Below the pieces are notes generated by a model that was given only the letters and a program-made list of their open reading frames with translations, did not search any database and was not told the origin of the DNA. From Promethearchaeota archaeon (GTDB lineage Archaea > Asgardarchaeota > Lokiarchaeia > Sigyniarchaeales > SOKP01): 14,042 nt of DNA. The stretch lies in NCBI GenBank assembly GCA_048938025.1, contig JBHLMP010000064.1, positions 2,851 through 16,892 of the forward strand, written 5' to 3'. The position numbers and the translations under genes were made by a program. The first letter of the stretch is position 1; every line of letters begins with the position of its first letter. Below, piece after piece: positions 363-14,020 of this stretch.

Positions 363-2558
363 CTAATGAAAAACAGCAACTTCAGTTAATTGTTCTAATT
401 TCATTAACTTCCGATTAATAAATACTCTAACTTTTTCTGAAGTTATTTTTGGATTATTTACAACAAGGTCTTTAACAAAAGCATGACATTTTTTCCCTAA
501 TTTCGCTAATAACCTATGGTTTTCATTTGTATCATCATAGATAGGGATTGGAAACATAAACGGTCGTTTATGAATATGTCTGGAACTTTTTATTAATTTT
601 ATATATTTTGATAAATTAGGAGCATTTAATATAGCTGATAAATAATAGGCTTCATTTTCAGATTCAGTTGAATAGTAATAATTTTCTGAACCAATGATAA
701 TTCTTTGTTTATTCTTGTTTATAACAGCTGCTTTAATATTGGAACCACTCGCATTGTATATAACAATATAACTTTTACTTTTGACTTGTTTTTTTAATTT
801 ATTCCAGTAATTTAGATTTTCATATAAAGTATTTATGCTACTTGTTTCTTTTTTATGGATTTGATAAAAATTGTTCATCTCCTTATAGAAACTCATAGCT
901 TTAGGATATTTCTGAAGATATTTTTGATCAAAATCAAAACTCTCATTGATAGGAAGAAACGCATTTTTTAATTGTTTTATGCAAAAAGGTACAAGGTCTC
1001 TATTTAAAAAGGTCCTATATCTAAAAATTTTCTCAATTTCTTTATTTTTAAAAGTAAATTTCCATCTACTTTTTGCCCTTGATAAAGTATCTAGGTCTGA
1101 AGATATTACGAGAAAGCCATTGTTTTTTTCATCTATTTGGAAAAAGACTAATGTCCGAGGGACTAAAGTAGCTCCTTGGAGAAACATATTTTTATATTTA
1201 CTATTTGATAGTTCGCTAATAATTTTTAGTTCTTTTTCAGGGAGTAATAATTTTGCGCCATCATTTTCGATTCTTAAGCTTGAATAATAAGTTTCTTTTA
1301 GATTTTCTAATTTATTATTGAAAAGTTTGGTTTTAATAGGATATTTCTCTGAAAGTGAGATATTACTATTCTTACCAATATATCTTGCTTTCAAGCAGAC
1401 ATGATTCACATTAAAGAAATAACTTTTTGGAAAATCCCAAATTTCTAGATTGTTAAAAATTGAAAAACTTCTAAATTTAAAGCAATGGTCTCCATTTAAA
1501 ACACTTTTAGTAATAACAAAAAATATTTTTCCGTTAATTTTTAAGAATTTCAAGGGAATAGCATAGAAGAATATGGCTGCTAGTTCTATATGTGTAATAT
1601 ATTGACTACGGGGTTTAATTCCCAGATTATTTGATAAACTCCTTATTTTATTTTGATAGGTTTTGCTATATATGTCTTTATAAGTTAACCAAGGAGGGTT
1701 GCCAATAATTAGATCAAAAGTATTATATAATTTCTTTATATCTACATTAATTTTTTTTTCATACTGTTCAGGAAATAGAGAATCTAATAAAAATATATTA
1801 ATTTTAAGTAATTTATTATCTTTTAGGTCAAAATATTCTAAAAACAATAAATATAGGTTAATTTTTGCAGTTAATGTTGCTAAAGGGTTTATATCAAAGC
1901 CATAGACTTTATTGATAGCCTCAATTTTTGAGGAATCTGGATTATTTGAATTAATAATACTAATTACAATATCTATCAGAAAACTCCCTGAACCACAGGA
2001 TGGATCCAATATTTTTAGACCAAATTCATAAAAATCATCGACCATTTTCTTAACAAGGTTAGGAAATGTATAGAATTCTCCTATTTTATGCCTTGTTAGC
2101 GTCAAAAAAATTTGTTGATAGAGACTTTGAAACAAATCTTCGCGAGCAAAATTAGTTTTTTCAATTATATAATAGATTTTTTCAAATATTAATCGATCAA
2201 AATTAGTCCAATTGAAATATTCAAACTCAAAAATATTTAAAGAATCTAAGTTATTGGATTTTATGAATTGGTAAATTTGTTCTGTATTCTTATTCTGTAT
2301 GATATATAATTTACTCAATAGTAAAATTTTTAAGATTAGGGCAAAATAGGAATGTTTTATAAATAATTTAGAATCTGTTTCTTCTCCGTAAAAGCTCTTA
2401 CAGAGTGATTCCCATACTTTTAATTTATTTTTGAATTTTTCTTCATTAATTTCTGCTTCTTTTTCAAGGAAATTCAATGAATCTTTAAAAATACTAGAAT
2501 TTAATCCAAAGGCGTTTAAAATATCTTTAGAGTTAATTATTTTTTCTTCCTCTCTCAA
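363..2558 (-). CDS. N6-adenine DNA methyltransferase, gamma class (Eco57I/type IIG-like MTase plus target-recognition region); no obvious nuclease domain
   Basis: 731 aa with a TTG start. Motifs GEFYTFP (motif X), ILDPSCGSGSFL (SAM-binding motif I), YGFDINP and IIGNPPW (catalytic motif IV), followed by a long C-terminal TRD-like region. Confidence 0.88.
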   Translation of the reverse strand: MREEEKIINSKDILNAFGLNSSIFKDSLNFLEKEAEINEEKFKNKLKVWESLCKSFYGEETDSKLFIKHSYFALILKILLLSKLYIIQNKNTEQIYQFIKSNNLDSLNIFEFEYFNWTNFDRLIFEKIYYIIEKTNFAREDLFQSLYQQIFLTLTRHKIGEFYTFPNLVKKMVDDFYEFGLKILDPSCGSGSFLIDIVISIINSNNPDSSKIEAINKVYGFDINPLATLTAKINLYLLFLEYFDLKDNKLLKINIFLLDSLFPEQYEKKINVDIKKLYNTFDLIIGNPPWLTYKDIYSKTYQNKIRSLSNNLGIKPRSQYITHIELAAIFFYAIPLKFLKINGKIFFVITKSVLNGDHCFKFRSFSIFNNLEIWDFPKSYFFNVNHVCLKARYIGKNSNISLSEKYPIKTKLFNNKLENLKETYYSSLRIENDGAKLLLPEKELKIISELSNSKYKNMFLQGATLVPRTLVFFQIDEKNNGFLVISSDLDTLSRAKSRWKFTFKNKEIEKIFRYRTFLNRDLVPFCIKQLKNAFLPINESFDFDQKYLQKYPKAMSFYKEMNNFYQIHKKETSSINTLYENLNYWNKLKKQVKSKSYIVIYNASGSNIKAAVINKNKQRIIIGSENYYYSTESENEAYYLSAILNAPNLSKYIKLIKSSRHIHKRPFMFPIPIYDDTNENHRLLAKLGKKCHAFVKDLVVNNPKITSEKVRVFINRKLMKLEQLTEVAVFH

Positions 2559-2595: not shown

Positions 2596-3135
2596 TTATT
2601 TACCTCTCATAAATGAAGGGAGCATTAAACTAAAAATTTCAGCAATTTGTCTTAACTTTGATGTCTCCTTTACCATTGTAACAATTAAGATTGATCTTTC
2701 TAGTTCCTCTTTATCCAAAGACCCTCCTGCATAAATAGCTAATTCTGTATTAAATACTAATAAGTATTTCACATTTGGATTATTTATTATGTTTATTCCC
2801 GGTGTAGCTTTAAGCTCATCATAGTATTCATGATACTCTTTTGGAATTCCTCCTCTATCATTAGTTATTATTAATATAGGTATTCCTCTCTGCACAACTT
2901 TCTTTAACTCTGTAGTATAAAATTTTCCAACTTTGGGAGACACAATATTTAATTGTTCTTTTGTTTCCTGAATTAAATTAATTAGTTGATCATTTAATAG
3001 ATTTTTCTTACTTAAACCCCCTGATGTTTCTAAGCTAATCATTCCTACTAATGATAAAACTTTCTCTTCCAAACTTAACACTTGGTCTTTAAGGCGTTTA
3101 TTTTCAACTCGAAGTTCTATTAATCTATCTGACAA
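2596..3135 (-). CDS. Short N-terminal coiled coil plus PLD-like (phospholipase D/nuclease fold) domain lacking the HKD motif
   Basis: 179 aa with a TTG start. The pattern LINLIQETKEQLNIVSP...VQRGIPILIITND...LLVFNTELAIYAGGSL follows PLD-fold/TrmB-like secondary-structure signatures. No HxK motif; the only His is residue 102. Heptad-like N-terminus. Confidence 0.6.
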   Translation of the reverse strand: MSDRLIELRVENKRLKDQVLSLEEKVLSLVGMISLETSGGLSKKNLLNDQLINLIQETKEQLNIVSPKVGKFYTTELKKVVQRGIPILIITNDRGGIPKEYHEYYDELKATPGINIINNPNVKYLLVFNTELAIYAGGSLDKEELERSILIVTMVKETSKLRQIAEIFSLMLPSFMRGK

Positions 3136-3160
3136 TTTTAATCCACTTATTATTATTTAA

Positions 3161-3170
3161 TGTTATAAAT
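3161..3170 (-). promoter_or_regulatory. Putative archaeal TATA box (ATTTATAACA) for the PLD-like gene
   Basis: Lies 26-35 nt upstream of the start codon. The identical 10-mer sits at almost the same distance upstream of the AbrB-ACT gene. Confidence 0.5.
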
Positions 3171-3235
3171 AAATAATCTAAATTAAATTTATATAAATAT
3201 TTGTTAAAAAAACTTCAATTCTCTTAAGTTAAGAT

Positions 3236-5821
3236 TTAAAATACTAATCTTTTCCATGGCTTTCCAAACAAGATATAACTGGATAAAGCTAAGCTACTTT
3301 CTAAATCAATATGTTTACTTCCATCATCTGCGGTCAGATCTTTAAACTGTTGTTCAACAAGTTTCATCATTTTTTCAGAGATACATTGTTGTCGTGCTGT
3401 AAGAAGTGCTATTCCTTGGCTATCCCCTTTAATTAAATAAGTGAAAAAGTTTGCAATAATCTCATTTGCCTCATCATTAAAAATGGGGTAATTACGAGAA
3501 ATAATCCCCGTAATCCTATCATAATCAAATTGAGCGAGAATTTCTCCTAATTTCCTTAAAACATTTGTTAATTTTTTTCCCTCAACACTATAGATTTGAG
3601 CATTAAAAAATAAAAAAGGTTGTAAATTTGCTTTATTTTGGTTTATAAGTTTATTAATTTCATTTATTGTTATTATATTCCCATCATTCGTGATGAAAAA
3701 ACTATCTTTTGGGCTCCATTTAGAATAAAATATGTTTCCAACAAAAATTATGATATGATATGCTCCATCAGACATATGCGAGAGAATTGTTTCCCGAGTT
3801 GAAGCTGCTCCAATTAAATGAGTTATTTGATTTACTTCATCTCTCTCATTAAGAAAACTTATTATAAAGTTTAGCTCATTGGCTCCAGCTGGAAATGGAA
3901 AAATCAGTTCCTTATTTTTAGTATCTTCATTCCAACTTTTTGGACCCATTGAATTTATAGCTTCAATGATTAATACATTATAAATATTTTGAGAGGGTTC
4001 GGATTCTGGCTCTTCTTGACTAATTTGTTCAAAAGCGATGCCACCTAAAGGTGTTTCGCCAATTTTATAACCTGTTGAATATTTTAACAAGAAAAAATTA
4101 TTATCATATATTAAATCAAAAGGAATAGTCATATTATCCAATATAAAGTATATTTGAGGTACTAAATTCAAACTTTCAATTTTGAACGATTTAAAAAAAT
4201 CTCTAACTAATTTAGGTAAAAAAATATAAAACAATTGACCATATTCTGTTAAATTAAAAAAATATTTCTTATGTTCTGATTCAGAAAACAGTTTATTAAA
4301 TATTTCGAGAATTTGAGTATCATTCCAAAATTCGGTAACTATTGATCCCTCAACAATTTGATTATCTAATGATATCATCCGATATGAGATAATACCTTTA
4401 GAGTTTATTCTTATGATTATCTGTTTTATAACAAAACCTTGTAGATATACTGGATTAATTTCATCTTCAAATGAATAGATCTGATTTTTTAAAGGTTCAG
4501 ATTCATTATACAATGTATTTAAATTGGTGATAAGTTTAATAAATTTTTCATCTAAATGAAGGAGAATTTTTTGAGCAAGATTATAATTTTTTTCTTCAAA
4601 TAATGCACGATAGAACATCATTCTCCAGAAATCGCGTTGTTCTAAAGAAAAGAACATTGATTTAAATTTCCAAAGTAGATTACATGTATAGAAATAATGA
4701 AAAATTTGAGCACTTGTTTGAGGCGTCTTTAAATGAATATTCAATTTTTCTAAAGACTGAAGTAAATATCGCTTTTCCTTCATATCAACGAATTTTTTGC
4801 AAGCTTCGACCCAAAGCTCAATTAATATGTTATCATAAGAAAGATCTGTTTGAAATATAAATAAATCTTCCAAAAAATCATATATTTCATAAGCAATTTC
4901 AAACCGATTCCTATTTATTGAAAAATCAATATATTTTCGAATATAAGTGACAGCATCTCCAAATGATTGATATTCCTGAATTTTGTAAAATATATTTCTT
5001 ATAATTATCATGACCCACAGATATTCACCAATATCGTTTAAATAATATATAAGCTCTTCGAGATCAACTAAAATAGTATTAAAGCTTCTTTCATTAATAG
5101 AGATCCTACTTATATTATTAAATTCATTTTTCAAATATCCTGGAAGGCGATTAATCAGTATCTTGTTTATAATCTTAACAAATTCAGCTGAATCCTCCAT
5201 TAGTTGATATTTTAAACAAATGTTTTCTAAAAAGAAATATAAAAATAAAGGTCTTTTTGCTGGTTCTAATTTATATAAGGTACGACCTAAAATTTCCATA
5301 CTTAGATGAAAATATTCCGAAGGGATAACAGATTTTCTTAAAAACATTAATAGAATTTGTAATTCTATTAATTTGAGAGACTCTTCTCTTTCTTTTAGTT
5401 TTATTGAAAAAGAATTAATAAATTTTGTAATTCCTACTTGAGATACATCTTCCAAATTAATAAATGTCTTAAGTAAGTTTGTATAGAAGCTATCAAACAA
5501 GTAAAAATCATTCAGTTTAGATAAAAATGAGAAAAATCTTTTATAAGCGTCAATATATCTTATTAAATCAATATCTACTTGTTCCTCGTCTTTCTTTATA
5601 AGTGAATTTAAGTATATCCACCATGAATTTGATATTACCATTACCAACTGATGCCTTTTTTGAATATCTAACCATTCTGTCTTTTCAATTTCAAAATATA
5701 AATCAGTTAATAAACGATCAGCCCACACATGATTCGCTGATTGAAGTAACCTGCGTCCTTGGATAATATTCTTTTGAAAATTCTCTAAAAATTCTTTTTT
5801 GACAATTAAACTTACAGACAT
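3236..5821 (-). CDS. Large helical (solenoid-like) protein with a C-terminal CHAT/caspase-fold domain, predicted catalytically inactive
   Basis: 861 aa. The C-terminal ~400 aa carry CHAT-like motifs: IPFDLIYD, YHIIIFVGN, FLFFNAQ, GIISRNYPIFNDEA, G.ALLTARQ and SYILFGKP. The N-terminal half looks all-alpha. Confidence 0.72.
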   Translation of the reverse strand: MSVSLIVKKEFLENFQKNIIQGRRLLQSANHVWADRLLTDLYFEIEKTEWLDIQKRHQLVMVISNSWWIYLNSLIKKDEEQVDIDLIRYIDAYKRFFSFLSKLNDFYLFDSFYTNLLKTFINLEDVSQVGITKFINSFSIKLKEREESLKLIELQILLMFLRKSVIPSEYFHLSMEILGRTLYKLEPAKRPLFLYFFLENICLKYQLMEDSAEFVKIINKILINRLPGYLKNEFNNISRISINERSFNTILVDLEELIYYLNDIGEYLWVMIIIRNIFYKIQEYQSFGDAVTYIRKYIDFSINRNRFEIAYEIYDFLEDLFIFQTDLSYDNILIELWVEACKKFVDMKEKRYLLQSLEKLNIHLKTPQTSAQIFHYFYTCNLLWKFKSMFFSLEQRDFWRMMFYRALFEEKNYNLAQKILLHLDEKFIKLITNLNTLYNESEPLKNQIYSFEDEINPVYLQGFVIKQIIIRINSKGIISYRMISLDNQIVEGSIVTEFWNDTQILEIFNKLFSESEHKKYFFNLTEYGQLFYIFLPKLVRDFFKSFKIESLNLVPQIYFILDNMTIPFDLIYDNNFFLLKYSTGYKIGETPLGGIAFEQISQEEPESEPSQNIYNVLIIEAINSMGPKSWNEDTKNKELIFPFPAGANELNFIISFLNERDEVNQITHLIGAASTRETILSHMSDGAYHIIIFVGNIFYSKWSPKDSFFITNDGNIITINEINKLINQNKANLQPFLFFNAQIYSVEGKKLTNVLRKLGEILAQFDYDRITGIISRNYPIFNDEANEIIANFFTYLIKGDSQGIALLTARQQCISEKMMKLVEQQFKDLTADDGSKHIDLESSLALSSYILFGKPWKRLVF

Positions 5822-5846
5822 ATCTATAATTTTCAGCTTTATATTT

Positions 5847-7046
5847 CTAATTTGGATTTTGATTATTCTTTTCTAAATTTTGTCCTTTTAATGTTTTAAA
5901 GGTTGGATTATTCTCCCAACCCTTTTTCAATTTCCCTTGAGAATATAAAATACTCCCCCCGATCCAGCCCATATTTTCTCTACCAGAAACTGCTGTTACT
6001 TTAATCTTGTCTTTTATCTTAGTTGAAAAGTAATTTGAGAGGTCTAATTCTAATCTTTTATCTAATCCTGAAACTAGACTTCCTCCTCCAGAAAGAATGA
6101 TATTTGGTACTAATTCTTCCCAATTCTCTCGATCCCATGTCTTTATGACTTTTGCTATTGTTTCTCCTAAACCATTATAATCTATATGAATTAATGTTGG
6201 ATCAAATATGGGTTCAATAAGCATAAATCTTTCAAAATTGATTTCTAAATTGGAACCATCTGGTAAATTTACACTTCTATTATACATTGTCAACCCTGCT
6301 TTTACTCGTTTCATCTCTTCAATAGGATCAAGAACACATAATGATAATCTTTCTTTGATCTCTTTAGCTGTCATATAATCAAGATAAATAGCTGTTTCAG
6401 AACTCTTTTTAGTTAAAATCATGTTAAGAAGATGATTTGTTAAATCTTTGCCTGAAATTGGAAAAATGTCCCTTGCCATTACATTTGTAAATCCATGAAA
6501 AATTGTTGAAATATATGTATTTGATTCCCCCATATTTAAAACTACCCCACTTGTTTTTTGTAAGGTGGAAAGAATAGCTTGCGTTTCAGATAAAAATAAA
6601 ATAGATGGAAACCCAAAAATATCGAAAAAAGTTTCCTTTAGTTTTTTTTGTGTCAATTCAGGCATAAAAAAGGGAGTAATAATAATAATTGGTTGTTTGA
6701 ATCTGCATTCTTCAGATATTTCTAATTGTTGATAATAATAATAAAAGAATTTCGTAAGTATAGTAAAATTATTTTCTTTCTTAAACTCGTGAATTTTTAA
6801 AATATTTTGATACTTTAAGGCATCATTTCCGAATAAATGATTCTCGATATTTTCCTTATCAATAAAAATGTCTTCTAAACCATCAATAACATCAGATGTA
6901 AATAAATAATCATTAATATCCACATATACACTTGGAACAATAATATCGGGAAAGTCATCACCAGCCCATCCAAGACGAAATGTATTACTTCCAATATCAA
7001 TAATCAATGGACGTAATTGGTCATTGCTCTTAGATGACATATTCAT
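5847..7046 (-). CDS. Actin-related protein (divergent actin-family member, Asgard ARP type)
   Basis: 399 aa. Actin signatures: PLIIDIGSNTFRLGWAGDDFP (phosphate 1), GVVLNMGES (phosphate 2), ISGKDLT, KEIKERL, LPDG, ERF..EPIFDP, NIILSGGGS and WIGGSIL. The start could be Met1 (7046) or Met3 (7040). Confidence 0.93.
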   Translation of the reverse strand: MNMSSKSNDQLRPLIIDIGSNTFRLGWAGDDFPDIIVPSVYVDINDYLFTSDVIDGLEDIFIDKENIENHLFGNDALKYQNILKIHEFKKENNFTILTKFFYYYYQQLEISEECRFKQPIIIITPFFMPELTQKKLKETFFDIFGFPSILFLSETQAILSTLQKTSGVVLNMGESNTYISTIFHGFTNVMARDIFPISGKDLTNHLLNMILTKKSSETAIYLDYMTAKEIKERLSLCVLDPIEEMKRVKAGLTMYNRSVNLPDGSNLEINFERFMLIEPIFDPTLIHIDYNGLGETIAKVIKTWDRENWEELVPNIILSGGGSLVSGLDKRLELDLSNYFSTKIKDKIKVTAVSGRENMGWIGGSILYSQGKLKKGWENNPTFKTLKGQNLEKNNQNPN

Positions 7047-7089
7047 TTTAAATCCTAAAATATTTTATTTTATAAAAGTAACATATTTG

Positions 7090-7833
7090 CTAAATCAGTT
7101 GTTTTTGTTCATGTATGTAGTCATCTACGACCTTCTTTAATTGGTATTCTTTTATTTGCAATTCAAGCATTCCTAAAACTCGTTTAAATTCATTTGACAT
7201 TGATTCAATATCTACTCCCGCTACTTTCTCAACCTCTTTGCGTTTTACTTTGAACTGTTCCAAATTTATCTGAATTTTTTCATACAAATTCTTGATTGAT
7301 TCGACTAGATCTTCTGTATTTTTCTTTGTAATTTTACGCATTTTACGTAGTATGCCTAAAATACCAGATATTGAATTTTCCCAGCGATTATATCTGTCTG
7401 TATATCCATTTAATAAATCCTCGAAAAATTCAGTTAATCGTTCATATATATTTTCCTTTTTAATAAAAGAAGACTCTGCTTTTGTTGATGGTATAGGAGG
7501 TTGAGTTCGTTCATCTTTCATCGTTATTGGAGTTCTTGCACCTGTTTTAAATAATAGTTGTTCAGATATAGGAACATCTTCCAGTACATAAGTTTCAGCT
7601 ATTCTTCTTTTACTCTCATGTGATAACTGCGGTTTAATCCTTTGTGTTTCTTTTTTCGGATATACAAATCCATCTCCTTCAGATACTCCCTTTAATAAAG
7701 TTTGTAAGGTTGTTTCCGTTTTTTTTGCTGATTGTAAAGAATTCCCTAGTGAATAACCTGCATCCTCTATATCTTGTTCGGGTATTTCTTGTATTTTTCC
7801 TTTCTTTTGTGTTTTTTTTTTCTTTTTACCCAT
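7090..7833 (-). CDS. Hypothetical protein: polybasic N-terminus, disordered linker, C-terminal helical/coiled-coil region
   Basis: 247 aa, ATG start with a GAGGT RBS upstream. Begins MGKKKKKTQKKGK; the last ~120 aa are amphipathic heptad-rich helices. Confidence 0.8.
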   Translation of the reverse strand: MGKKKKKTQKKGKIQEIPEQDIEDAGYSLGNSLQSAKKTETTLQTLLKGVSEGDGFVYPKKETQRIKPQLSHESKRRIAETYVLEDVPISEQLLFKTGARTPITMKDERTQPPIPSTKAESSFIKKENIYERLTEFFEDLLNGYTDRYNRWENSISGILGILRKMRKITKKNTEDLVESIKNLYEKIQINLEQFKVKRKEVEKVAGVDIESMSNEFKRVLGMLELQIKEYQLKKVVDDYIHEQKQLI

Positions 7834-7841
7834 TTACACTA

Positions 7842-7846
7842 ACCTC
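7842..7846 (-). promoter_or_regulatory. Shine-Dalgarno-like GAGGT
   Basis: Minus strand reads TTGAGGTTAGTGTAAATG, ending at the start codon at 7833. Confidence 0.65.
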
Positions 7847-7879
7847 AATGTTTTATATTGTCTTTATTATTTTTTTAAT

Positions 7880-8287
7880 TTAATCTAATGGAAGAACTTC
7901 TACATTAAGTGCTTCTCCTTTTTCTATTAACTTCTCTCGTAGTTCCTCCAAAGTAATTCCTTTTGGAGTGGGACTAATCACAGTCCAAATCGCTGTTTTA
8001 TCCTTCTCTACAATTGCAGACTCACCATATATTAAAGAAATCCTCATCTCTCCAAAAGTTGTAGCAATTTTAGCTAAAGCTCCTGGGATATCCTCCATAG
8101 TGATCCTGAATTTTATTGGCTTCTCTTCCTCTGAAATACCTACTGGTGTTATTTTTATCTCTTTAGTTTCTGAATCACTTACCAACATCAGTTGAGTATT
8201 AGTAGTTAATCCCAAGCTTTTACGTGTAACTAAAGGGATGACAATTCTACCACGATTGTCAATAGTAATAATTTTAACGTCTTTCAT
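7880..8287 (-). CDS. AbrB/MazE/SpoVT-family DNA-binding domain fused to an ACT domain (putative ligand-responsive transcription regulator)
   Basis: N-terminal ITIDNRGRIVIP...RKSLGL is the swapped-hairpin signature. C-terminal ITMEDIPGALAKIATTFGEMRISL is the ACT signature (D.PG.LA.I). Confidence 0.88.
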   Translation of the reverse strand: MKDVKIITIDNRGRIVIPLVTRKSLGLTTNTQLMLVSDSETKEIKITPVGISEEEKPIKFRITMEDIPGALAKIATTFGEMRISLIYGESAIVEKDKTAIWTVISPTPKGITLEELREKLIEKGEALNVEVLPLD

Positions 8288-8313
8288 ATCTTTAAGCTTA
8301 CTTATTTAATTAT

Positions 8314-8323
8314 TGTTATAAAT
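8314..8323 (-). promoter_or_regulatory. Putative archaeal TATA box (ATTTATAACA) for the AbrB-ACT gene
   Basis: Lies 27-36 nt upstream of the ATG at 8287 with no RBS in between, consistent with a leaderless or short-leader transcript. Confidence 0.55.
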
Positions 8324-8364
8324 TTAATACAATAAGTTATGGATCTAATTTTGTTATAATAATT

Positions 8365-8391
8365 ATTAAAATTATTATTAATAATTTTAAT
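8365..8391. repeat. Perfect 12-bp inverted repeat ATTAAAATTATT-N3-AATAATTTTAAT
   Basis: Read directly from the sequence. It overlaps a second perfect palindrome, TAATAATTATTA (8357-8368). All A/T, so significance is limited. Confidence 0.55.
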
Positions 8392-8501
8392 GTAATTCTT
8401 ATTCACGAGAAATCAATAAATAAGACGAAAATCAAAATAACTTAAAATATGAATTTTTAACTCTTAGGACACAATTTAGAATTAAAAAAGTCCCTAAAAA
8501 T

Positions 8502-10652
8502 TTATAACTCTCCTTTATGAGCTTTAAGTTTAACTGTTAGATCCCTAGCTCGCTTTGAATACCATATTAACAACTCACCAGCATCTTCAGGTTTGAAATA
8601 TTCACCTCCACATAAAGCAGCAGCTCGACTCATCAATTCATCATCTGGGTTACCCATACCAACAAGATATACAACAATATTTGGGTTGTCTGCCAATTTC
8701 TTAATTTCATTGAAAAAAGCATCGCCATCCGTTGGTACGCCGTCTGTAAGGAAGACTATCATCGTTGGTTGATCTGGACTTAATCTATCAAATTCTGCTA
8801 ATACCTGCTGTGCTGAAAGCATTGCAGGGCCCATATTAGTAGCTTGTCCATAGGCATTACCAATCCTATCAACAATTAACCTTGCAGCCTCTTCAAGAAC
8901 TCCTTTTTTACCACTTGCAGAATCCATATAGAAGGAATTTCCGAAAGGGAGTATTTGTGCTTCATCGGCGAAGCGGATTACAGAGACTTTTTCCCCAAAG
9001 CCTCTTCCAACCTTTTCACTTAAGAAAAGGACTGCTGCAAATGCTGCAGATATCCTACGAGGTATGTAAATACCATCTTTGAAGTGTTTTAAAAATTCTT
9101 GAATTTCTCTAGATTCCATAGCTGCTTTTATCCCCTCAATAGCGGGAGCAATATTGGTAACAAAGACATCGCGTGCCATCATTGACCGGCTGATATCAAT
9201 TATCAAAATAGCGTTAAAGGGGATCAATCCAGTTGGACTTAAACTCAATGCTGTATTTTCTGTTACCTTAGCAAAAATATCTCCAGTTAGATCAGGAACA
9301 GTTTTTAGAATTGAACAAGCAATATTTACTGCAGACCATCTGAGTTTAATACCCTTGAAAATAATATAATTAGAGATCCAGCCTTTTAAGGATGCTACAT
9401 TTTGTCGAGCGGTACTTATAATTTCCCACATATTTTCACCAGAAATCGGGGAAATTCCAAGCGAAATATTTTGTAAAGGGATAATAGCTCTTTGATTCTT
9501 TGAAACTTTAACCTCAAAACTCCCGATACCCGATGCTTCGAGAATTTCGCTATCGATAATAATTGTATTATCTGCCACTGATTCTAAGATTTCAACTTTA
9601 CCAGCTCCGATCGCTCCTGTTAACTCATCTTCAAATGCTAAAATATCATTTTGCATTATTGAAAGTGTATATTGAGTTCTCGGGCTAATTAGCGCATGTC
9701 CCATCAAATTAGGTTGTGATTGAACCTCTAGCATTATTTCTGAAGCTTTTTGTATTGGAGGTTCCGTAGAATAGACAACAATTTGTTGTGAGTGTACATT
9801 TGTATCTTCTTTAGTATCATTACTCATTTTAATTTGAGTATCTAAAATGTTTGCGGCATCTATTCTTGCTGAGCCCATAGCTCGTGTTAACGGATCTTCC
9901 CATGCTATAAGCATTCCTTGTCCTAGACCTAATCGTTGAACAATGGAATGACTTAGTTGTATTCTTCCTCCTTCTATAGAATTATCAATAACTGGCGTTA
10001 AAATTATTCCATTTTTCTGACTTTGTAACATATTTACATCTATTCTATTTGGATATGGTTCTGCTGGAGCTGCGGGTTCTACTGACGGCTGTCCTATAGT
10101 TGGTTGAGTGAATTGATTAGGAGTTGGTTGAGGAGGAGGAGTTGGCAATGGGGATAATGATGGTTGAGGGGTGGGTGTAGGTAGAGGAGTTGGTTTAAAA
10201 TCAGATATTGGTGCTGGTTGTGGAGTTGATATGGGTTGGGGAACAGGAGCAGGTGTAGGTTGAGGGGATGGAGCTACACTAGGTGGTGGCGTAGGTAATG
10301 GAGATAAAGTAGATGGTTGGGAAGGTTGAGGTCTTGGAATTGGTTTTGGTGCTGGAACTTTTGGAATTTTTAACATAGGAGTAAGAGATGCTGCTGCACT
10401 TACTGGGCGAATCGCTAATTCAACTCCGCTAAATTGTAATTCATCAAGTACATTTTTGGCAACTTGCCCTGCAAAATCTAAAACCATATCAGATATCTCT
10501 ATAGTTGCAGTTTTCTTTAAGTTATTATCAGGATTTACAACTTCTATTGACCCCCCATTTTTAACTCCTAATTTATCGGCATTTGATTGACAGACTACAA
10601 CTTTATTTGTAATTTCTTCATTAACATCGACAAAAATTTTAATTTCTGGCAT
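8502..10652 (-). CDS. Multidomain protein: CDC48-N-like double-psi barrel, Pro-rich linker, two more barrel repeats, CDC48 domain-2-like segment, C-terminal VWA domain
   Basis: 716 aa. The VWA domain has an intact MIDAS (LIIDISRSM ... ATNMG ... VFLTDG ... LVGMG). Barrel-like repeats include RIQLSHSIVQRLGLGQG..EDPLT and ALISPRTQYTLSIMQND..EDELT. The segment ILKTVP...KVTENTALSL resembles the end of the CDC48 N-domain. No Walker A motif. Confidence 0.75.
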   Translation of the reverse strand: MPEIKIFVDVNEEITNKVVVCQSNADKLGVKNGGSIEVVNPDNNLKKTATIEISDMVLDFAGQVAKNVLDELQFSGVELAIRPVSAAASLTPMLKIPKVPAPKPIPRPQPSQPSTLSPLPTPPPSVAPSPQPTPAPVPQPISTPQPAPISDFKPTPLPTPTPQPSLSPLPTPPPQPTPNQFTQPTIGQPSVEPAAPAEPYPNRIDVNMLQSQKNGIILTPVIDNSIEGGRIQLSHSIVQRLGLGQGMLIAWEDPLTRAMGSARIDAANILDTQIKMSNDTKEDTNVHSQQIVVYSTEPPIQKASEIMLEVQSQPNLMGHALISPRTQYTLSIMQNDILAFEDELTGAIGAGKVEILESVADNTIIIDSEILEASGIGSFEVKVSKNQRAIIPLQNISLGISPISGENMWEIISTARQNVASLKGWISNYIIFKGIKLRWSAVNIACSILKTVPDLTGDIFAKVTENTALSLSPTGLIPFNAILIIDISRSMMARDVFVTNIAPAIEGIKAAMESREIQEFLKHFKDGIYIPRRISAAFAAVLFLSEKVGRGFGEKVSVIRFADEAQILPFGNSFYMDSASGKKGVLEEAARLIVDRIGNAYGQATNMGPAMLSAQQVLAEFDRLSPDQPTMIVFLTDGVPTDGDAFFNEIKKLADNPNIVVYLVGMGNPDDELMSRAAALCGGEYFKPEDAGELLIWYSKRARDLTVKLKAHKGEL
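10050..10379 (-). repeat. Pro/Thr/Gln/Ser-rich low-complexity coding segment with a duplicated LSPLPTPPP motif (10281-10307 and 10131-10157)
   Basis: Residues ~92-201 of the 716-aa ORF. The two 9-aa copies are 150 nt apart and differ only at synonymous positions. Confidence 0.9.
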
Positions 10653-10842
10653 GATAAAATCTCAAATTTATTTTTACATTATCTATAAATTAATATATTT
10701 ATCTTTTTTAAAATAAGTGTTTTTATAATAACACAATAATGGGGATTTAACTTGAAAATCATAATTAATTCTAAAATTTTAATTCCTAACAGATATTCTA
10801 CTAAAATTTTTTTTAATGATCTTTTTAATAAAGGTTAAAAAA

Positions 10843-11244
10843 TTATGACATTGGATATCGTTTAGCGATCTCTCCTGCATAATACCTGAATACCGTTACA
10901 ACTTTCCCCAAATCGGCAGTTTGTCTTGAAGCACCCATGAGAAAGAATCTTCCGGCAGCTGAGAGAATTATAAATCCATTTTCTCCTCTCAATACTACTT
11001 CAAGCATGTGAGTGTATCCAAGAGAATTAACTGCGTCATAGCCGGATTGCATAACTACAGCACTAAGGCTTGAAAATAAATCAGGATCTATGTTATACCC
11101 CGAAACACATGAAAATGCTAAGCGTAAACCTTCACGAGTCACCAAAGCTAGGGCTTCTAACTCTGTGTATTCAGTTATACTACCTAAAAACTTACTTAAA
11201 CTTTGAGCTTCTTGGGGTGATAAATCGGACAATTTTGGCTGCAA
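10843..11244 (-). CDS. Roadblock/LC7 (MglB-like) domain protein
   Basis: 133 aa. Pattern LEALALVTREGL...DPDLFSSLSAVVM...LG...LEVVLRGENGFIIL...ADLG is typical of Roadblock/LC7. TTG start; an in-frame CTG lies immediately upstream. Confidence 0.9.
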   Translation of the reverse strand: MQPKLSDLSPQEAQSLSKFLGSITEYTELEALALVTREGLRLAFSCVSGYNIDPDLFSSLSAVVMQSGYDAVNSLGYTHMLEVVLRGENGFIILSAAGRFFLMGASRQTADLGKVVTVFRYYAGEIAKRYPMS

Positions 11245-11282
11245 CAGTTATTTTTAATTCAATTAATAAATATAAAGTGTTT

Positions 11283-11319
11283 TAGGTTTAAAAATTTATA
11301 TCTCAAATTTTAAATCCTA
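11283..11319. repeat. Imperfect inverted repeat TAGGTTTAAAAATTT-N7-AAATTTTAAATCCTA upstream of the Roadblock gene
   Basis: 13 of 15 arm positions are complementary. It lies just upstream of a TATA-like TTTATATT (11269-11276, minus strand). Confidence 0.5.
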
Positions 11320-11462
11320 GTTATATTTTAAAGTTTAGTTGCGGTTTTCTCAATTTAGTTGAAGTATCAATTAAAAGAAAGTGAGTTTAGGATTTTGCTT
11401 TTTATAATTAGTTATTTTAAAAAGATTTAATAAGAAAATAGAAGCTGGAAAGGATAATGTTT

Positions 11463-12308
11463 CTACTTTCCACCAAGTTGTTCTTTAATTTGTTCTTTTA
11501 AAAGTTCTCTTTTATCCTTTGATTGTACTGGTTTTATTAGTGTGCCAGCGCGTTTTAAAAATTCAATAGCAATTATTTTTCCGTTTTCTGACAAAATGCG
11601 AGGTGAATAGTCCTCAGCAAAAAAGATACCTTCTGGAATAGACCCTACTTTTGATATCTCTTTTGTAACTTCTTTCTTACCTAAAAATTGTTGAACCCTT
11701 TCTACAACTGAATATGCTTGATTTCCAATAATAATAAGTTCTCTTTCAAAACCAGCAGGTATCTGAATTTCTTCTAGTCTTTTCATAACACCTTGAAAAT
11801 CTACTTGGCTTTCATCTCGCATAAGAGCTACCATGGAACCTTCTCCAGTATAGAGAGGTCCTCTATTTATAGCAGCACGCTCTTTGCTTCCTGCTATATT
11901 CATCCCTTCAGCTGGTCTTGGAGTACCAAAAATATTTTTTTCCCTTAAAGGATGCACCACAGGAGCGGATGCTTGCGTGACTGGTTCAGCTTTAATCTCT
12001 TTTGCATGACCTGCTACTGTCTTTCCACCAATCAATCGTATAAATTCTGGTTCTTCTTCACCCTCATCAAGCGGAACTACAGCATAATGTAACCCTACTT
12101 GTCCTCTGATTTCTTGGCTTCGTTTAGCTCCAATGAATTTAGATCTAACGCTACTACTTATTCCTTTCCAGAGATATACTTTTCTTACTTCATCAGCAAC
12201 TATAACATAGCATTCACTAGTTTCTAAAACGTCTTTTATCGGTTCTTCAGAAATAATTTCAGTAGTTGTACCATCGGGTCTGATTAAAAACACTTGAAGT
12301 CCAACCAA
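11463..12308 (-). CDS. Gelsolin-like domain protein (single N-terminal gelsolin domain, linker, unidentified C-terminal domain)
   Basis: Residues ~1-95 contain ECYVIV...KVYLWKG..SS...KFIGA...LDEGEEEPEFIRLIG, matching the gelsolin-repeat consensus (vyvWvG..s....k..a ... v.eG.E..eF). TTG start with a GAGGT RBS. Confidence 0.85.
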   Translation of the reverse strand: MVGLQVFLIRPDGTTTEIISEEPIKDVLETSECYVIVADEVRKVYLWKGISSSVRSKFIGAKRSQEIRGQVGLHYAVVPLDEGEEEPEFIRLIGGKTVAGHAKEIKAEPVTQASAPVVHPLREKNIFGTPRPAEGMNIAGSKERAAINRGPLYTGEGSMVALMRDESQVDFQGVMKRLEEIQIPAGFERELIIIGNQAYSVVERVQQFLGKKEVTKEISKVGSIPEGIFFAEDYSPRILSENGKIIAIEFLKRAGTLIKPVQSKDKRELLKEQIKEQLGGK

Positions 12309-12448: not shown

Positions 12449-14020
12449 TTAAGAACTGATTATGCTATCGATTGCATCATTAATGTTAGCTATCATATCT
12501 GTTGTTGTAAAGCGATCTCCTAAATTTTTTTTGCAATATTCCCCTATATAACCATTAAGAAATGCTGCTGAACATGCTGATTCAAAAGGATCGTTATTTG
12601 TTGCTAGAAAGGAGGCACATAATCCTGCTAAAACATCGCCAGTTCCTCCAATTGACATTTCAGGGCAACCTGTTTTATTAATTTTTAGTTTTTTATTATT
12701 TGTGATATAATCATATGGACCTTTTACTAAAAAAGTAGTATTAAGCTTTTTTGCCAGAGCAAAAATCATATTTGCTCTTTCTTCTATTTTATCATAAGAT
12801 GGTAAATCCAAATTAGCCATTATTTTTAATTCCCCTTGATGAGGTGTTAAGATAGCTCTCTCACCTTTAATCAAATCAAGATGATTCTTAACTAATTTTA
12901 ATGCATCGGCATCAAGAACATAAGATTTTTGTTTCTCTTTTAAATACCCTAGTAGTTTTACTAATAATTCTTCTGTTTCTTTTTCTATGCCTAAACCTGG
13001 ACCAATTACTATTGTATTAGACCAATCTATTAGCTCTTTTATCTCTTCTAAGGCTTTTATGTTTAACCAATTTCCTGGATTAGTTCTAACAATCATATTT
13101 GGTGAATAACTTCTAATAACATTACCGATAACTTCTGGTACATAGGTTATTACTAAATCACATCCAAAATGAATTGCTGTTAGAGAAGCATAAGCTGGTG
13201 CTCCAGAATAATTTTTTGAACCGCCTATTATTAGGATTTTTCCAAATTGGCCTTTATAAGCATCTATCTTTCTTACTTTTAAGGTAGGGATTAGATCACC
13301 TCTTCCAACAAATAGTTTAGCTTCTTGGGGAATGCCTATTGATTTTTCTAGTATCTCTTTCATATATTCATTAGTTCTAGACATTCCGATTTTAGAACTA
13401 TGGAAGGTTATAACTAAATCTGCCTTTACAGCCTTATCAGTAACTTTTCCGGTACTTGGATCTAAGCCAGAAGGAACATCAATCGAAACAACTTTAAGTC
13501 TTTCCGGATCTTCTTTTTTAAGATCATTAATTAAATCTATTGTAGATGCAATAGGTTCCCTAATTTTTCCCTTAATCCCCGTTCCTAATAATCCATCTAC
13601 TAATAAACTATACTCTTTATCTTTTTTAATAGTATTATAAATTTTGTTTAAATCTTTAGAATCCCTAATAATTTCTATATCTATTGAATACGTAAGATTA
13701 TTAAAAATAATATTCCAATTTATTTGTGCCTCGTTAGTTCTTATATTATCAGGAGCTCCTATTAGAATTACTAAAGATCTATTACCGTAGGAAGATAAAT
13801 GTCTGGCTATACCAAAACCGTCACCTCCATTATTACCAGTTCCGCAAAAAATAGCTGCTTTCGAACTAGATCTTAAATAACCTCTGTTCATGACTTCACT
13901 TGCAAAAGCATAACCTGCACATTCCATTAAATAACTCTTTGGAATGCCTAACCATTCAGAGTTATTATCTAAAATTGCCATCTCTTCAGAAGTGATTTTT
14001 TCAGAATTAAATGGTTTCAT
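12449..14020 (-). CDS. nnr: Bifunctional NAD(P)H-hydrate epimerase / dehydratase (YjeF-N plus carbohydrate-kinase domain)
   Basis: Epimerase motifs LMECAG, CGTGNNGGDG, VDGLLGTG and SIDVPSG. Dehydratase motifs IIGGSKNYSGA, IGPGLG, LDADAL, LTPHQGE, LVKG and GGTGDVLAG. Confidence 0.96.
   Translation of the reverse strand: MKPFNSEKITSEEMAILDNNSEWLGIPKSYLMECAGYAFASEVMNRGYLRSSSKAAIFCGTGNNGGDGFGIARHLSSYGNRSLVILIGAPDNIRTNEAQINWNIIFNNLTYSIDIEIIRDSKDLNKIYNTIKKDKEYSLLVDGLLGTGIKGKIREPIASTIDLINDLKKEDPERLKVVSIDVPSGLDPSTGKVTDKAVKADLVITFHSSKIGMSRTNEYMKEILEKSIGIPQEAKLFVGRGDLIPTLKVRKIDAYKGQFGKILIIGGSKNYSGAPAYASLTAIHFGCDLVITYVPEVIGNVIRSYSPNMIVRTNPGNWLNIKALEEIKELIDWSNTIVIGPGLGIEKETEELLVKLLGYLKEKQKSYVLDADALKLVKNHLDLIKGERAILTPHQGELKIMANLDLPSYDKIEERANMIFALAKKLNTTFLVKGPYDYITNNKKLKINKTGCPEMSIGGTGDVLAGLCASFLATNNDPFESACSAAFLNGYIGEYCKKNLGDRFTTTDMIANINDAIDSIISS

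Follow-up and report, generated by a model that had tools for sequence, protein, structure and literature searches.

Eight consecutive genes in a Promethearchaeota (Lokiarchaeia-type) genome encode a gelsolin-domain protein, a Roadblock/LC7 protein, a VWA protein, an AbrB-ACT regulator, a coiled-coil protein (CC), a divergent actin-related protein (ARP), a TPR-CHAT protein, and a PLD-fold protein. The host group comprises the nearest archaeal kin of eukaryotes. The locus raises the question whether such a run is a single functional system. The window, i.e., the whole 14,042-nt stretch of DNA analyzed, was compared with ~130 related loci.

The Locus and Its Genes

Ten ORFs of 120 aa or more were found in the window, all on the minus strand (Table 1). 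The eight named genes span exactly 2596–12308, and the ORF listing bore out the predicted run of eight consecutive same-strand genes. Close homologs carry Asgard source names, in support of an Asgard origin. Gaps of 150–220 nt had been claimed for the upstream half, where they measured 140, 218, 190, and 214 nt; the gaps in the downstream half were 46, 43, 25, and 100 nt.

Table 1. Genes of the window, from the upstream to the downstream end.
Feature	Position	Strand	Length (aa)	Set	Basis
Nnr, bifunctional NAD(P)H-hydrate repair enzyme	12449..14020	-		Flank, outside module	PF01256 + PF03853
Gelsolin-domain protein	11463..12308	-	281	Block A	PDB phmmer, Atlas matches
Roadblock/LC7 protein	10843..11244	-	133	Block A	PF03259, 27.8 bits (cut-off 23)
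MIDAS-VWA protein with Pro-rich linker	8502..10652	-	716	Block A	PF00092, 33.1 bits (cut-off 23.8); also PF13519
AbrB-like + ACT small regulator	7880..8287	-	135	Block B	ACT, 27.7 bits (cut-off 27)
Lys-rich coiled-coil protein (CC)	7090..7833	-	247	Block B	Alignment of 18 orthologs
Divergent ARP	5847..7046	-	399	Block B	PF00022, 161 bits
TPR-solenoid + caspase-fold (CHAT) predicted pseudo-protease	3236..5821	-	861	Block B	AF2/Foldseek fold
Small coiled-coil + PLD-fold predicted pseudo-enzyme	2596..3135	-	179	Block B	PF13091, 18.5 bits (below 27)
N6-adenine DNA methyltransferase	363..2558	-		Flank	PF02384 + PF07669

In the gelsolin-domain protein, the gelsolin domain is N-terminal, and a conserved linker joins it to a beta-rich C-terminal domain, which is also conserved; the mean column identity was 68% in an alignment of 12 orthologs. 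It found no match in Pfam. Residues 23–94 matched a Lokiarchaeota 2DGel (7whg) in the phmmer search against the PDB (E = 8e-9), and the Atlas feature and structure searches led to gelsolin-family clusters. The AF2 model was unusable (pLDDT 50). The Roadblock/LC7 protein matched Roadblock chains in the PDB (E = 6e-4 and 1e-3), and the Pfam search revealed no GTPase gene in the window.

In the VWA protein, small N-terminal beta domains are followed by the Pro-rich linker (residues ~95–210) and a C-terminal MIDAS-VWA domain. The MIDAS motif DxSxS..T..D was intact in all covering rows of the alignment (24–25 of 26), and the C-terminal ~400 aa were conserved in 252 of the 400 genomes of the phylum. 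The 115-aa linker contains 37% Pro with PPP as its longest proline run; values of 32–40% were found in nearly all full-length rows. It is a PT/PS/PQ-type linker with proline runs of at most 3–5, which leaves its proposed role as a profilin/SH3 recruiter unsupported.

For the AbrB-ACT protein, the AbrB models scored below their cut-offs, as did NF006352 (85.7 bits). In CC, a variable linker separates the Lys-rich N-terminus from a conserved helical domain of ~125 aa at the C-terminal end; no family or PDB match was found for it. The ARP is the lowest-scoring of the genome's four actin-family genes and shares 24–26% identity with the other three proteins. The PDB search showed no preference for any eukaryotic Arp (actin 120–129 bits, Arp1 118 bits).

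Of the two flanking genes, the methyltransferase is similar to type IIG enzymes in their MTase/TRD part and has no nuclease domain (PADLOC REase_MTase_IIG, 126 bits, profile positions 603–1082 of 1100). The PADLOC search of the eight proteins gave no meaningful score, CC matching only weakly (18.6–20.8 bits). A mobile defense island was considered and rejected; in PADLOC, only the flanking methyltransferase matched.

Loss of Catalytic Residues

The AF2 model of the TPR-CHAT protein (pLDDT 84, pTM 0.78) displayed a TPR plus caspase-like fold. Its best Foldseek matches were Csx29/TPR-CHAT (7zoq, E = 1.5e-10) and separase (9hms, E = 1.6e-7); by sequence, no PDB chain matched. The CHAT domain scored 19.1 bits in Pfam, under the cut-off of 24, and an ortholog reached 27.3. 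Canonical CHAT proteins matched the C-terminal domain in the profile search, and the N-terminal domain had no relatives outside the family. The His–Cys dyad was replaced in 9/9 CHAT-family rows examined and retained in 10/10 canonical relatives. Within the family, no conserved His or Cys was found at the dyad positions.

The Pfam match of the PLD protein covers profile positions 1–128 of 132. PF13091 reached 27.5 bits in the f3 ortholog, and the best PDB profile match was NucT (E = 0.009). The N-terminus is a coiled coil, and the C-terminal tail LPSFMR is invariant. None of the His residues was invariant or near-invariant among 14 orthologs, and this missing conserved His is the only backing for the register of the catalytic residues, which was assigned by visual inspection of the alignment. 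Judged from these alignments, CHAT without its His–Cys dyad and PLD without the HKD histidine are confirmed as predicted pseudo-enzymes, catalytically dead, as had been proposed.

Two Separately Conserved Gene Sets

The gene-neighborhood comparison split the run into two separately conserved blocks, A and B (Table 1). Block A occurred as a unit in families f1 and f2 only, always with Nnr upstream, and no gelsolin–Roadblock–VWA trio was found as a unit outside these families. Nnr, an unrelated gene, adjoins the gelsolin gene in both.

If all eight genes formed one cytoskeletal system, the gelsolin, Roadblock, and VWA proteins would regulate or anchor an ARP-based assembly. Actin-related folds occur in both blocks, block A lay directly upstream of block B in 15/16 same-genus loci, and in 54/63 f1 loci the VWA gene was co-oriented and less than 6 kb upstream. 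In G030, a gelsolin-family paralog directly follows PLD (profile E = 1.2e-19). Despite these points, we consider a single system unlikely. In G012, the closest relative (92–95% protein identity), block A is on a different contig, as it is in G060. It lies ~90 kb off on the opposite strand in G046, 8–12 kb away in G069 and G136, and ~320 kb distant in G038 (family f2); in G026, it is also elsewhere than block B. No upstream VWA gene was found in 9/63 f1 loci, the gaps of block A are 140–220 nt, and the Roadblock gene of G030, flanked by the gelsolin and VWA genes, has the opposite orientation. The unrelated Nnr gene stays the partner of block A, and the divergence rates differ: the protein identity between f1 and G038 was 43–57% for block A and 25–41% for block B.

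Since the core of block B is kept across three families and block A lies elsewhere in relatives, the eight-gene reading was only partly supported. The run is two separately conserved gene sets, not one unit. The original prediction, worded as "some or all" of the genes, did not stand for a single eight-gene system and did stand for the downstream five, which behave as a conserved, operon-like module. Block A is a separate set, its genes probably transcribed individually and plausibly with actin-regulating or adaptor roles, and it merely adjoins block B in the window's genus.

Conservation of Block B

Three families of the order share the four-gene core CC–ARP–CHAT–PLD, and its gene order held in f2 and f3 loci at 23–41% identity to the window proteins. 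The full-length CHAT-like family was single-copy in 127/154 genomes of the order; by family, it was found in 118/134 (f1), 7/14 (f2), 1/1 (f3), and 0/4 (f4). Synteny was counted in 80 f1 loci, using for each gene only those with sufficient flank. ARP was upstream of CHAT in 75/75 loci, always adjacent, and CC was upstream of ARP in 72/72. AbrB-ACT preceded CC in 68/69 f1 loci, and also in f3 and in G030 (f2); PLD followed CHAT in 66/68. The methyltransferase gene was downstream of PLD in 60/64 f1 loci and absent from the f2 and f3 loci.

The intergenic gaps of block B are short. ARP and CHAT were the tightest pair, with a median gap of 22 nt (range −8 to 87, n = 26); the same survey gave 58 nt for CC-to-ARP, 105 nt for CHAT-to-PLD, and 238 nt (up to 11.9 kb) for VWA-to-AbrB-ACT. 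In G032, G028, and G025 (genus g2) and G030 (genus g5), CC adjoins PLD, and both ARP and CHAT are absent between them. In these genomes, the ARP matches were only paralog-level (125–130 bits), and no CHAT match was found. The joint absence in the two genera may reflect one single loss event.

Block B could also be an inherited gene order without shared function. The flanking Nnr and methyltransferase genes match the "cytoskeletal" genes in synteny, so within-family synteny alone says little about function; even synteny at the depth seen for block B is no proof, with the Nnr–gelsolin linkage equally tight in f1 and f2. Nevertheless, we regard mere inheritance as improbable: the order persists at low identity with surroundings that change completely between f1, f2, and f3, the ARP and CHAT genes overlap or nearly abut, and these two disappeared together from the CC–PLD interval. 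Block B is the real module, apparently undescribed so far. In f2, it is tightly flanked by Hef and PHP genes and a 10-TM protein, so the true unit there may be larger or different.

Proposed Function of Block B

Our preference, a modest one, is for two neighboring, separable modules, of which block B is operon-like and its products would form a non-enzymatic scaffold complex around the divergent ARP. The ARP and the TPR-pseudo-CHAT protein would be co-produced and act as an obligate pair, added to an older pair of the Lys-rich CC and the coiled-coil pseudo-PLD. AbrB-ACT probably controls the operon by responding to a small ligand. Two inactive sites, the protease cleft and the phosphate pocket of PLD, would serve for binding, and attachment to an anionic surface (membrane or nucleic acid) would most likely be through the PLD fold and the Lys-rich N-terminus. 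The analysis shows the gene content, the missing catalytic residues, the synteny, and the co-loss of the ARP–CHAT pair; from these we infer complex formation, anchoring, and any link to actin filaments, and nothing supports tying the ARP to Lokiactin filaments. If this reading is true, the module may be an undescribed scaffold complex joining two dead enzymes to a divergent actin-like protein in the closest archaeal kin of eukaryotes.

Block B could also be an actin-family machine that acts on DNA in segregation or repair with ParMRC-like logic, in which the AbrB-fold or Lys-rich proteins would be the DNA adaptors. An AbrB-type DNA-binding fold upstream, the Lys-rich N-terminus of CC, a PLD fold common to nucleases, and DNA-enzyme neighbors in both lineages (the methyltransferase in f1; the helicase-nuclease Hef and PHP in f2) agree with such a machine. 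We give it little weight, since these neighbors differ between the families, the window holds just two weak 2-copy tandem repeats and none that is centromere-like, polymerization of the ARP is without support, and the 10-TM membrane protein after PLD in f2 speaks for a membrane rather than DNA.

A degenerate or atypical conflict (defense) system is very improbable: TPR-CHAT, PLD, and a type IIG-like methyltransferase are common defense parts, the large protein is structurally closest to the Craspase subunit Csx29, and the PLD fold is closest to the nuclease NucT, but catalytic residues are missing family-wide from both candidate effectors, the eight proteins gave no meaningful PADLOC score, the methyltransferase is absent from the f2 and f3 loci, the CHAT family is single-copy and near-universal in f1, unlike patchy defense islands, and no actin-family gene is known as a defense part.

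Comparison with Known Systems

The preferred scaffold reading of block B has parallels in eukaryotes. In the Arp2/3, dynactin, and INO80/SWR1 modules, a divergent actin paralog joins dedicated non-actin partners as a subunit and is not the bulk filament protein. Block B apparently uses its ARP in the same way; its partners, however, are not homologous, and the ARP favors no eukaryotic Arp. The TPR-CHAT protein shares the N-terminal helical solenoid and the C-terminal caspase-fold domain with separase and with Csx29 of the type III-E Craspase. It differs from both in that the whole family has other residues in place of the catalytic His and Cys, and the gene it is paired with encodes an ARP and neither a Cas effector nor securin. 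Similarly, the fold-level sequence signal of HKD phospholipase D and NucT extends across the whole PLD domain of block B, which lacks the HKD histidine and adds the coiled coil and the conserved tail.

Among archaeal systems, the crenactin arcade cluster of Thermoproteales (crenactin and arcadins 1–4) encodes partners of an archaeal actin, and arcadin-2 uses a small conserved peptide at its C-terminus for binding, with a variable linker between peptide and core (PMC5173319). It is a precedent for block B: there, too, an archaeal actin homolog is encoded next to partners specific to the lineage, one of them a coiled-coil protein (PMC5173319); the invariant tail of PLD and the conserved C-terminal domain of CC after its variable linker are further likenesses. 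In contrast, block B has no sequence relation to any arcadin (no family matches), its putative partners are a TPR-pseudo-protease and a pseudo-PLD, and its ARP is a divergent extra paralog, not the main filament former.

For block A, the Asgard gelsolins 1DGel, 2DGel, and ProGel, named in another study (PMC7444086), are the closest known counterparts. The gelsolin-domain protein resembles 2DGel in its N-terminal domain and differs in lacking a Pfam gelsolin match and in carrying the long conserved linker and the C-terminal beta-rich domain. The genome has further paralogs with the same layout.

Gene content of the window

Ten open reading frames of at least 120 aa were found in the window, every one on the minus strand (Table). 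The window lies at the end of a 16.9-kb contig belonging to an assembly of 3.5 Mb in 88 contigs, and the close homologs carry the source names 'Promethearchaeota', 'Lokiarchaeota' and 'Promethearchaeia archaeon'. The original prediction was that some or all of eight co-oriented genes (2596..12308) form a functional cytoskeletal or scaffolding system, a candidate actin-associated module. The same-strand run is present according to the ORF and family calls. The single system holds only in part: synteny supports a module of five genes around an actin-related protein (ARP). We refer to the gelsolin-domain, Roadblock and VWA genes as block A, and to the AbrB-ACT, coiled-coil (CC), ARP, CHAT-like and PLD-like genes as block B. 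Intergenic gaps of 140, 218, 190 and 214 nt separate the genes from Nnr to AbrB-ACT, and gaps of 46, 43, 25, 100 and 37 nt those from AbrB-ACT to the methyltransferase.

Rfam and tRNA scans of the window gave neither an RNA family nor a tRNA gene, and a tandem-repeat scan returned just two weak two-copy repeats, nothing notable. The G+C content is 0.36–0.39 at 8500–10500 and 0.25–0.30 elsewhere; this segment lies over the VWA gene, whose Pro-rich linker is rich in CCN.

Table. Genes called in the window, with the match on which each call is based
Product	Position	Strand	Evidence
Nnr, NAD(P)H-hydrate repair enzyme	12449-14020	-	family match
Gelsolin-domain protein	11463-12308	-	PDB 7whg, gelsolin-family Atlas rows
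Roadblock/LC7	10843-11244	-	PF03259, 27.8 bits (cut-off 23)
VWA protein, 716 aa	8502-10652	-	PF00092, 33.1 bits (cut-off 23.8)
AbrB-like + ACT protein	7880-8287	-	ACT, 27.7 bits (cut-off 27); AbrB models below cut-off
CC, 247 aa	7090-7833	-	no family matched
ARP, actin family	5847-7046	-	PF00022, 161 bits
CHAT-like protein, 861 aa	3236-5821	-	CHAT, 19.1 bits (below cut-off 24)
PLD-like protein, 179 aa	2596-3135	-	PLDc_2, 18.5 bits (below cut-off 27)
N6-adenine DNA methyltransferase	363-2558	-	family match

A divergent actin-related protein

The ARP belongs to the actin family. Its PF00022 match (161.4 bits, cut-off 27) covers residues 9–377, and 155 actin or Arp chains of the PDB were matched at E ≤ 1e-3. 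The source genome yielded four actin-family matches (300, 299, 213 and 157 bits). The ARP is the weakest of these and shares 24–26% identity with the other three; it does not fit Lokiactin, the main Asgard actin. The phosphate-2 motif of actin is DSGDG; inspection of the alignment by eye showed that it is changed to NMGES in the ARP, and that the phosphate-1 and adenosine motifs appear to be kept. The PDB search revealed no preference for a eukaryotic Arp class (actins 120–129 bits, Arp1 118 bits). Since actins and Arp1 score alike, the sequence is best read as that of a divergent, lineage-specific actin-related protein.

The remaining actin-family genes of the source genome have unrelated neighbours, none similar to block B. 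One of them, G000:C41:21502-23031 (+), equivalent to L193:4503-6032, encodes 509 aa with an actin-family region at residues 9–323 and a zinc-ribbon region toward the C-terminus. At another compared locus (L068:11700-12800 (-)), the ARP frame offers no start codon (ATG, GTG or TTG) close to the point where its orthologs begin; read from the first one available, the product is 307 aa long.

Asgard archaea have several actin-related proteins in addition to Lokiactin. For Candidatus Lokiarchaeum ossiferum, a passage of PMC9834061 describes three ARPs besides Lokiactin, with a 'complex evolution' and transcript levels below that of Lokiactin, and gives no function for them.

Conservation of the five-gene module

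ARP orthologs were detected in 21 of the 24 sampled genomes of the same genus, with 61–67% identity (92% in genome G012). The whole run from Nnr to the methyltransferase is intact at 15 of 16 same-genus loci, the exception being G012. We then compared the families f1 (that of the window) to f4 of the source order. Three f2 genomes (G039, G038 and G036) keep only CC-ARP-CHAT-PLD, and the f3 locus (G026) keeps AbrB-ACT-CC-ARP-CHAT-PLD. The block B proteins of f2 and f3 are 23–41% identical to those of the window, and the surroundings of the block are quite unlike those in f1.

The CHAT-like profile found one copy per genome in 127 of the 154 genomes of the order (f1, 118/134; f2, 7/14; f3, 1/1; f4, 0/4). 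In a draw of 400 genomes of the phylum, only seven outside the order matched, all through the CHAT domain alone; at the five such loci examined, neither ARP nor CC nor PLD was found beside it. At 80 further f1 loci, which come from named MAGs of the same genome collection and are thus not independent of the earlier loci, ARP was present in 75/75, CC in 72/72, AbrB-ACT in 68/69 and PLD in 66/68 of those with enough flank. In the same set, VWA lay within 6 kb upstream in 54/63. A passage of a 2020 survey (bioRxiv 10.1101/2020.10.19.343400) places most Asgard eukaryotic-signature genes outside conserved neighbourhoods. The five-gene ARP module is the real finding of this analysis.

The methyltransferase gene, 37 nt after the PLD-like gene in the window, follows PLD at 60 of 64 f1 loci, and does not do so in f2 or f3. 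At seven f2 loci (L048–L050, L068, L194, L196 and L203), genes for a Hef-type helicase/ERCC4 nuclease and a PHP protein lie tightly upstream of the module. Downstream, f2 has a 405-aa protein that matched no family and contains about ten hydrophobic segments. It occupies a position equivalent to that of the f1 methyltransferase; the two are unrelated, and their correspondence was rejected.

Pairs within the module

The ARP-to-CHAT gap is the shortest in the module, with a median of 22 nt and overlaps of 4–8 nt at some loci (n = 26); these values are approximate because start codons were picked by a simple rule. The PLD profile also detected orthologs in f2 genera with no detected CHAT. In G032, G028 and G025 (genus g2 of f2) and in G030 (genus g5), CC adjoins PLD, ARP and CHAT are both missing between them, and the ARP matches are at paralog level only. 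Thus, ARP and CHAT behave as one unit. CC and PLD behave as a second unit, which is older or more persistent. Judged from the gene content, the absence of ARP and CHAT in g2 and g5 may reflect one loss or two.

PLD-like homologs also occur in the further families f5–f7 (E 1e-19 to 1e-23), near coiled-coil proteins, an Arf-like GTPase or giant surface proteins. This hints that the pair of coiled-coil protein and pseudo-PLD may predate the ARP module. As additional ARP/CHAT loci, these homologs were rejected: neither ARP nor CHAT lies nearby, and they are a lead only. Loci L197 (G280), L198 (G282) and L200 (G281) have distant PLD-like homologs beside coiled-coil proteins; at L197, one such neighbour carries a wHTH at its C-terminus, and a gene for an Arf-like GTPase is close by. 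In G030, where ARP and CHAT are absent, a 326-aa gelsolin-family paralog (L195:7982-8959 (-), profile E 1.2e-19) is encoded directly downstream of PLD.

Loss of catalytic residues in the CHAT-like and PLD-like proteins

The AF2 model of the CHAT-like protein, built with 25 orthologs (pLDDT 84, pTM 0.78), shows a helical solenoid at residues 5–447 followed by an alpha/beta domain. A Foldseek search of the PDB with this model returned first the Craspase TPR-CHAT subunit Csx29 (7zoq, E 1.5e-10), next separase (9hms, 1.6e-7), and then the anti-sigma factor DdvA, gingipain, MALT1 and caspase-9. The Foldseek probability was 1.00 for TPR-CHAT, separase, gingipain, MALT1 and caspase-9. The protein is thus predicted by the model to have a caspase-like fold behind a helical repeat domain. 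The Pfam CHAT score, below cut-off in the window protein, reaches 27.3 bits in the f3 ortholog, and a PDB profile search gave nothing useful. Searching 1.84 billion representatives with the CHAT-like profile yielded 238 proteins at E ≤ 1e-3, about twenty of them full-length. Among the matches listed, the more distant relatives align only to profile positions ~500–855, which correspond to the CHAT domain.

For the catalytic dyad, we aligned nine of the 25 family rows with ten of the 150 listed distant relatives. The canonical 'AGH' His and 'SAC/NAC' Cys are present in 10/10 of the relatives examined. In the nine family rows, the His column holds N in eight and I in one, and the Cys column holds Q, K, V, H or R in all nine. 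Neither a His nor a Cys is found among the invariant columns of the C-terminal domain.

One or two in-frame stops occur in the CHAT-like gene at G003:C3:104886-107453 and in G063:C48, G067:C104 and G045:C513, and at L137 the gene reads as three pieces. These could be signs of decay or assembly errors.

PLDc_2 scores 27.5 bits in the f3 ortholog of the PLD-like protein. NucT was the top match both in NCBIfam (E 0.0011) and in the PDB profile search (E 0.009). Across 14 orthologs, no invariant or near-invariant His was found, and the HxK(x)4D motif is absent. The HKD region reads NVKYLLVF, its first position being N in 12 and R in 2 of the 14 rows (register set by eye). In the PLD-like protein, a heptad segment lies at the N-terminus, and the C-terminal LPSFMR is invariant. 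The designation of both proteins as pseudo-enzymes was therefore borne out: the CHAT-like protein is without the His-Cys dyad, and the PLD-like protein without a conserved His. With this module, the caspase/CHAT fold and a probable PLD fold join the enzyme folds that have been put to non-catalytic use.

For the other two block B proteins, the PDB profile search with CC gave nothing useful, and the AbrB-ACT protein stays below the cut-offs of TIGR01439 (23.6 vs 28.3 bits), MazE_antitoxin (17 vs 24.7) and NF006352 (85.7 vs 140).

Separation of the gelsolin, Roadblock and VWA genes

The 11463–12308 product contains a gelsolin/cofilin-fold domain. It matched the PDB entry 7whg, 'Lokiarchaeota gelsolin (2DGel)', at E 8e-9, and 7c2g, 7c2h and 7c2f at ~1e-4. 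In the Atlas structure search, a scinderin row meets the bar for PF00626; Pfam gave no match, and the AF2 model has a pLDDT of 50. The Roadblock protein matched PDB Roadblock chains at E 6e-4, and no GTPase gene lies near its gene. According to a passage of PMC12962969, Roadblock domains are common in prokaryotes. In the VWA protein, the MIDAS elements DISRS, T and D are retained in each covering row (24–25 of 26), indicating an intact metal site. Its Pro-rich tract is an 80–130-aa linker of the PT/PS/PQ type with proline runs of at most 3–5. The gelsolin fold and the intact MIDAS site suggest that block A is plausibly an actin-regulating or adaptor set.

Of the VWA protein, the C-terminal ~400 residues are widely conserved (252 of 400 genomes of the phylum). 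They consist of one small beta domain and the MIDAS-VWA, and share 32–41% identity with proteins of many other Asgard classes (e.g., loci L092–L099). The short form in those classes has 440–510 aa, and its gene adjoins neither a gelsolin nor a Roadblock gene.

At loci without VWA upstream of AbrB-ACT, the Nnr-gelsolin-Roadblock-VWA set remains intact elsewhere: on another contig in G012 and G060, ~90 kb off on the opposite strand in G046, and at distances of 8 kb in G069, 12 kb in G136 and ~320 kb in G038. The trio occurs as a unit only in f1 and f2, with Roadblock inverted in G030. In f3 and f4, as well as in the remaining families of the class and in other classes, the VWA gene occurs without the other two members. 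Between the source genome and G038, block A proteins are 43–57% identical and block B proteins 25–41%. The original prediction left room for one system of both blocks; the block B module stands, but its unity with block A does not, given that the trio is placed elsewhere in several genomes.

A joint absence of the blocks across MAGs was considered as a sign of a functional link. A hand tally gave 13 f1 genomes lacking both the CHAT and the VWA match, against ~2.6 expected. However, a contig end next to the Nnr or gelsolin gene cuts off the locus in G092 and G123, and Nnr is missing as well from G018, G008 and G113. The tally was therefore rejected as evidence, since it looks as if the region had been lost in assembly or binning.

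Nnr lies directly upstream of the gelsolin gene in f1 and f2 (12449–14020 (-) in the window; L087, L088, L089 and L110), even with block B far away. Synteny at such depth therefore need not mean shared function. Within f1, synteny is just as strong for Nnr and the methyltransferase as for the genes of the two blocks.

Possible role of the module

Block B is a conserved, tightly spaced gene set whose catalytic residues are lost and whose members are co-inherited in pairs. Its products would most likely assemble into a non-catalytic complex, with the ARP bound to the TPR-pseudo-CHAT scaffold. CC and the pseudo-PLD may link this complex to an anionic surface, and the AbrB-ACT protein would set the expression of the block. 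Our most specific proposal, which we regard as tentative and rather doubtful, is a hitherto unrecognised Promethearchaeia-specific ARP complex: an actin paralog would be a structural subunit, firmly attached to a pseudo-protease scaffold of separase/Csx29-like type and tethered through the Lys-rich CC and the pseudo-PLD to membrane or DNA. A complex prediction for the ARP, CHAT residues 380–861 and CC residues 130–247, each with an alignment, gave a score of 0.00, which speaks neither for nor against it.

The crenactin arcade cluster is the nearest working analogy to block B. As a passage of PMC5173319 describes, arcadin-2 binds the actin groove via a small conserved peptide at its C-terminus, which a variable linker precedes. 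By this analogy, the PLD tail and the C-terminal domain of CC are candidate contacts resembling the arcadin-2 peptide.

The alternative that block B is a defence system is weakened. Its flanking methyltransferase matches the PADLOC type IIG-like profile at 126 bits, but the active sites of the block are dead, its pattern is vertical and single-copy, and PADLOC gave no match for seven of the eight proteins, with weak coiled-coil matches only for CC. The methyltransferase aligns to the type IIG restriction-modification profile over the MTase/TRD part only (positions 603–1082 of 1100), without the nuclease domain.

Full-text searches of the literature on Asgard CHAT, caspase, actin-related and PLD clusters gave no description of the gene set, and one paper that came up concerns archaeal extrachromosomal elements; supplementary tables may list the families as unnamed clusters. 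Nor is the set mentioned in passages of PMC9834061, bioRxiv 10.1101/2020.10.19.343400, PMC12962969 and PMC13247210. A conserved operon-like set tying one ARP to three or four specific partner proteins provides concrete candidate interactors for that ARP. If the proposed Promethearchaeia-specific ARP complex were true, archaea would provide an instance of a practice known from eukaryotes, in which ARPs are incorporated into dedicated multi-protein machines. The hypothetical protein NEF87_003931 of Ca. L. ossiferum is identical to the CHAT-like protein of the f2 locus L068, and the module is therefore open to study in a cultured organism. The question of what Asgard ARPs do can thus be put to experiment, through co-purification and localisation in an organism that grows in culture.
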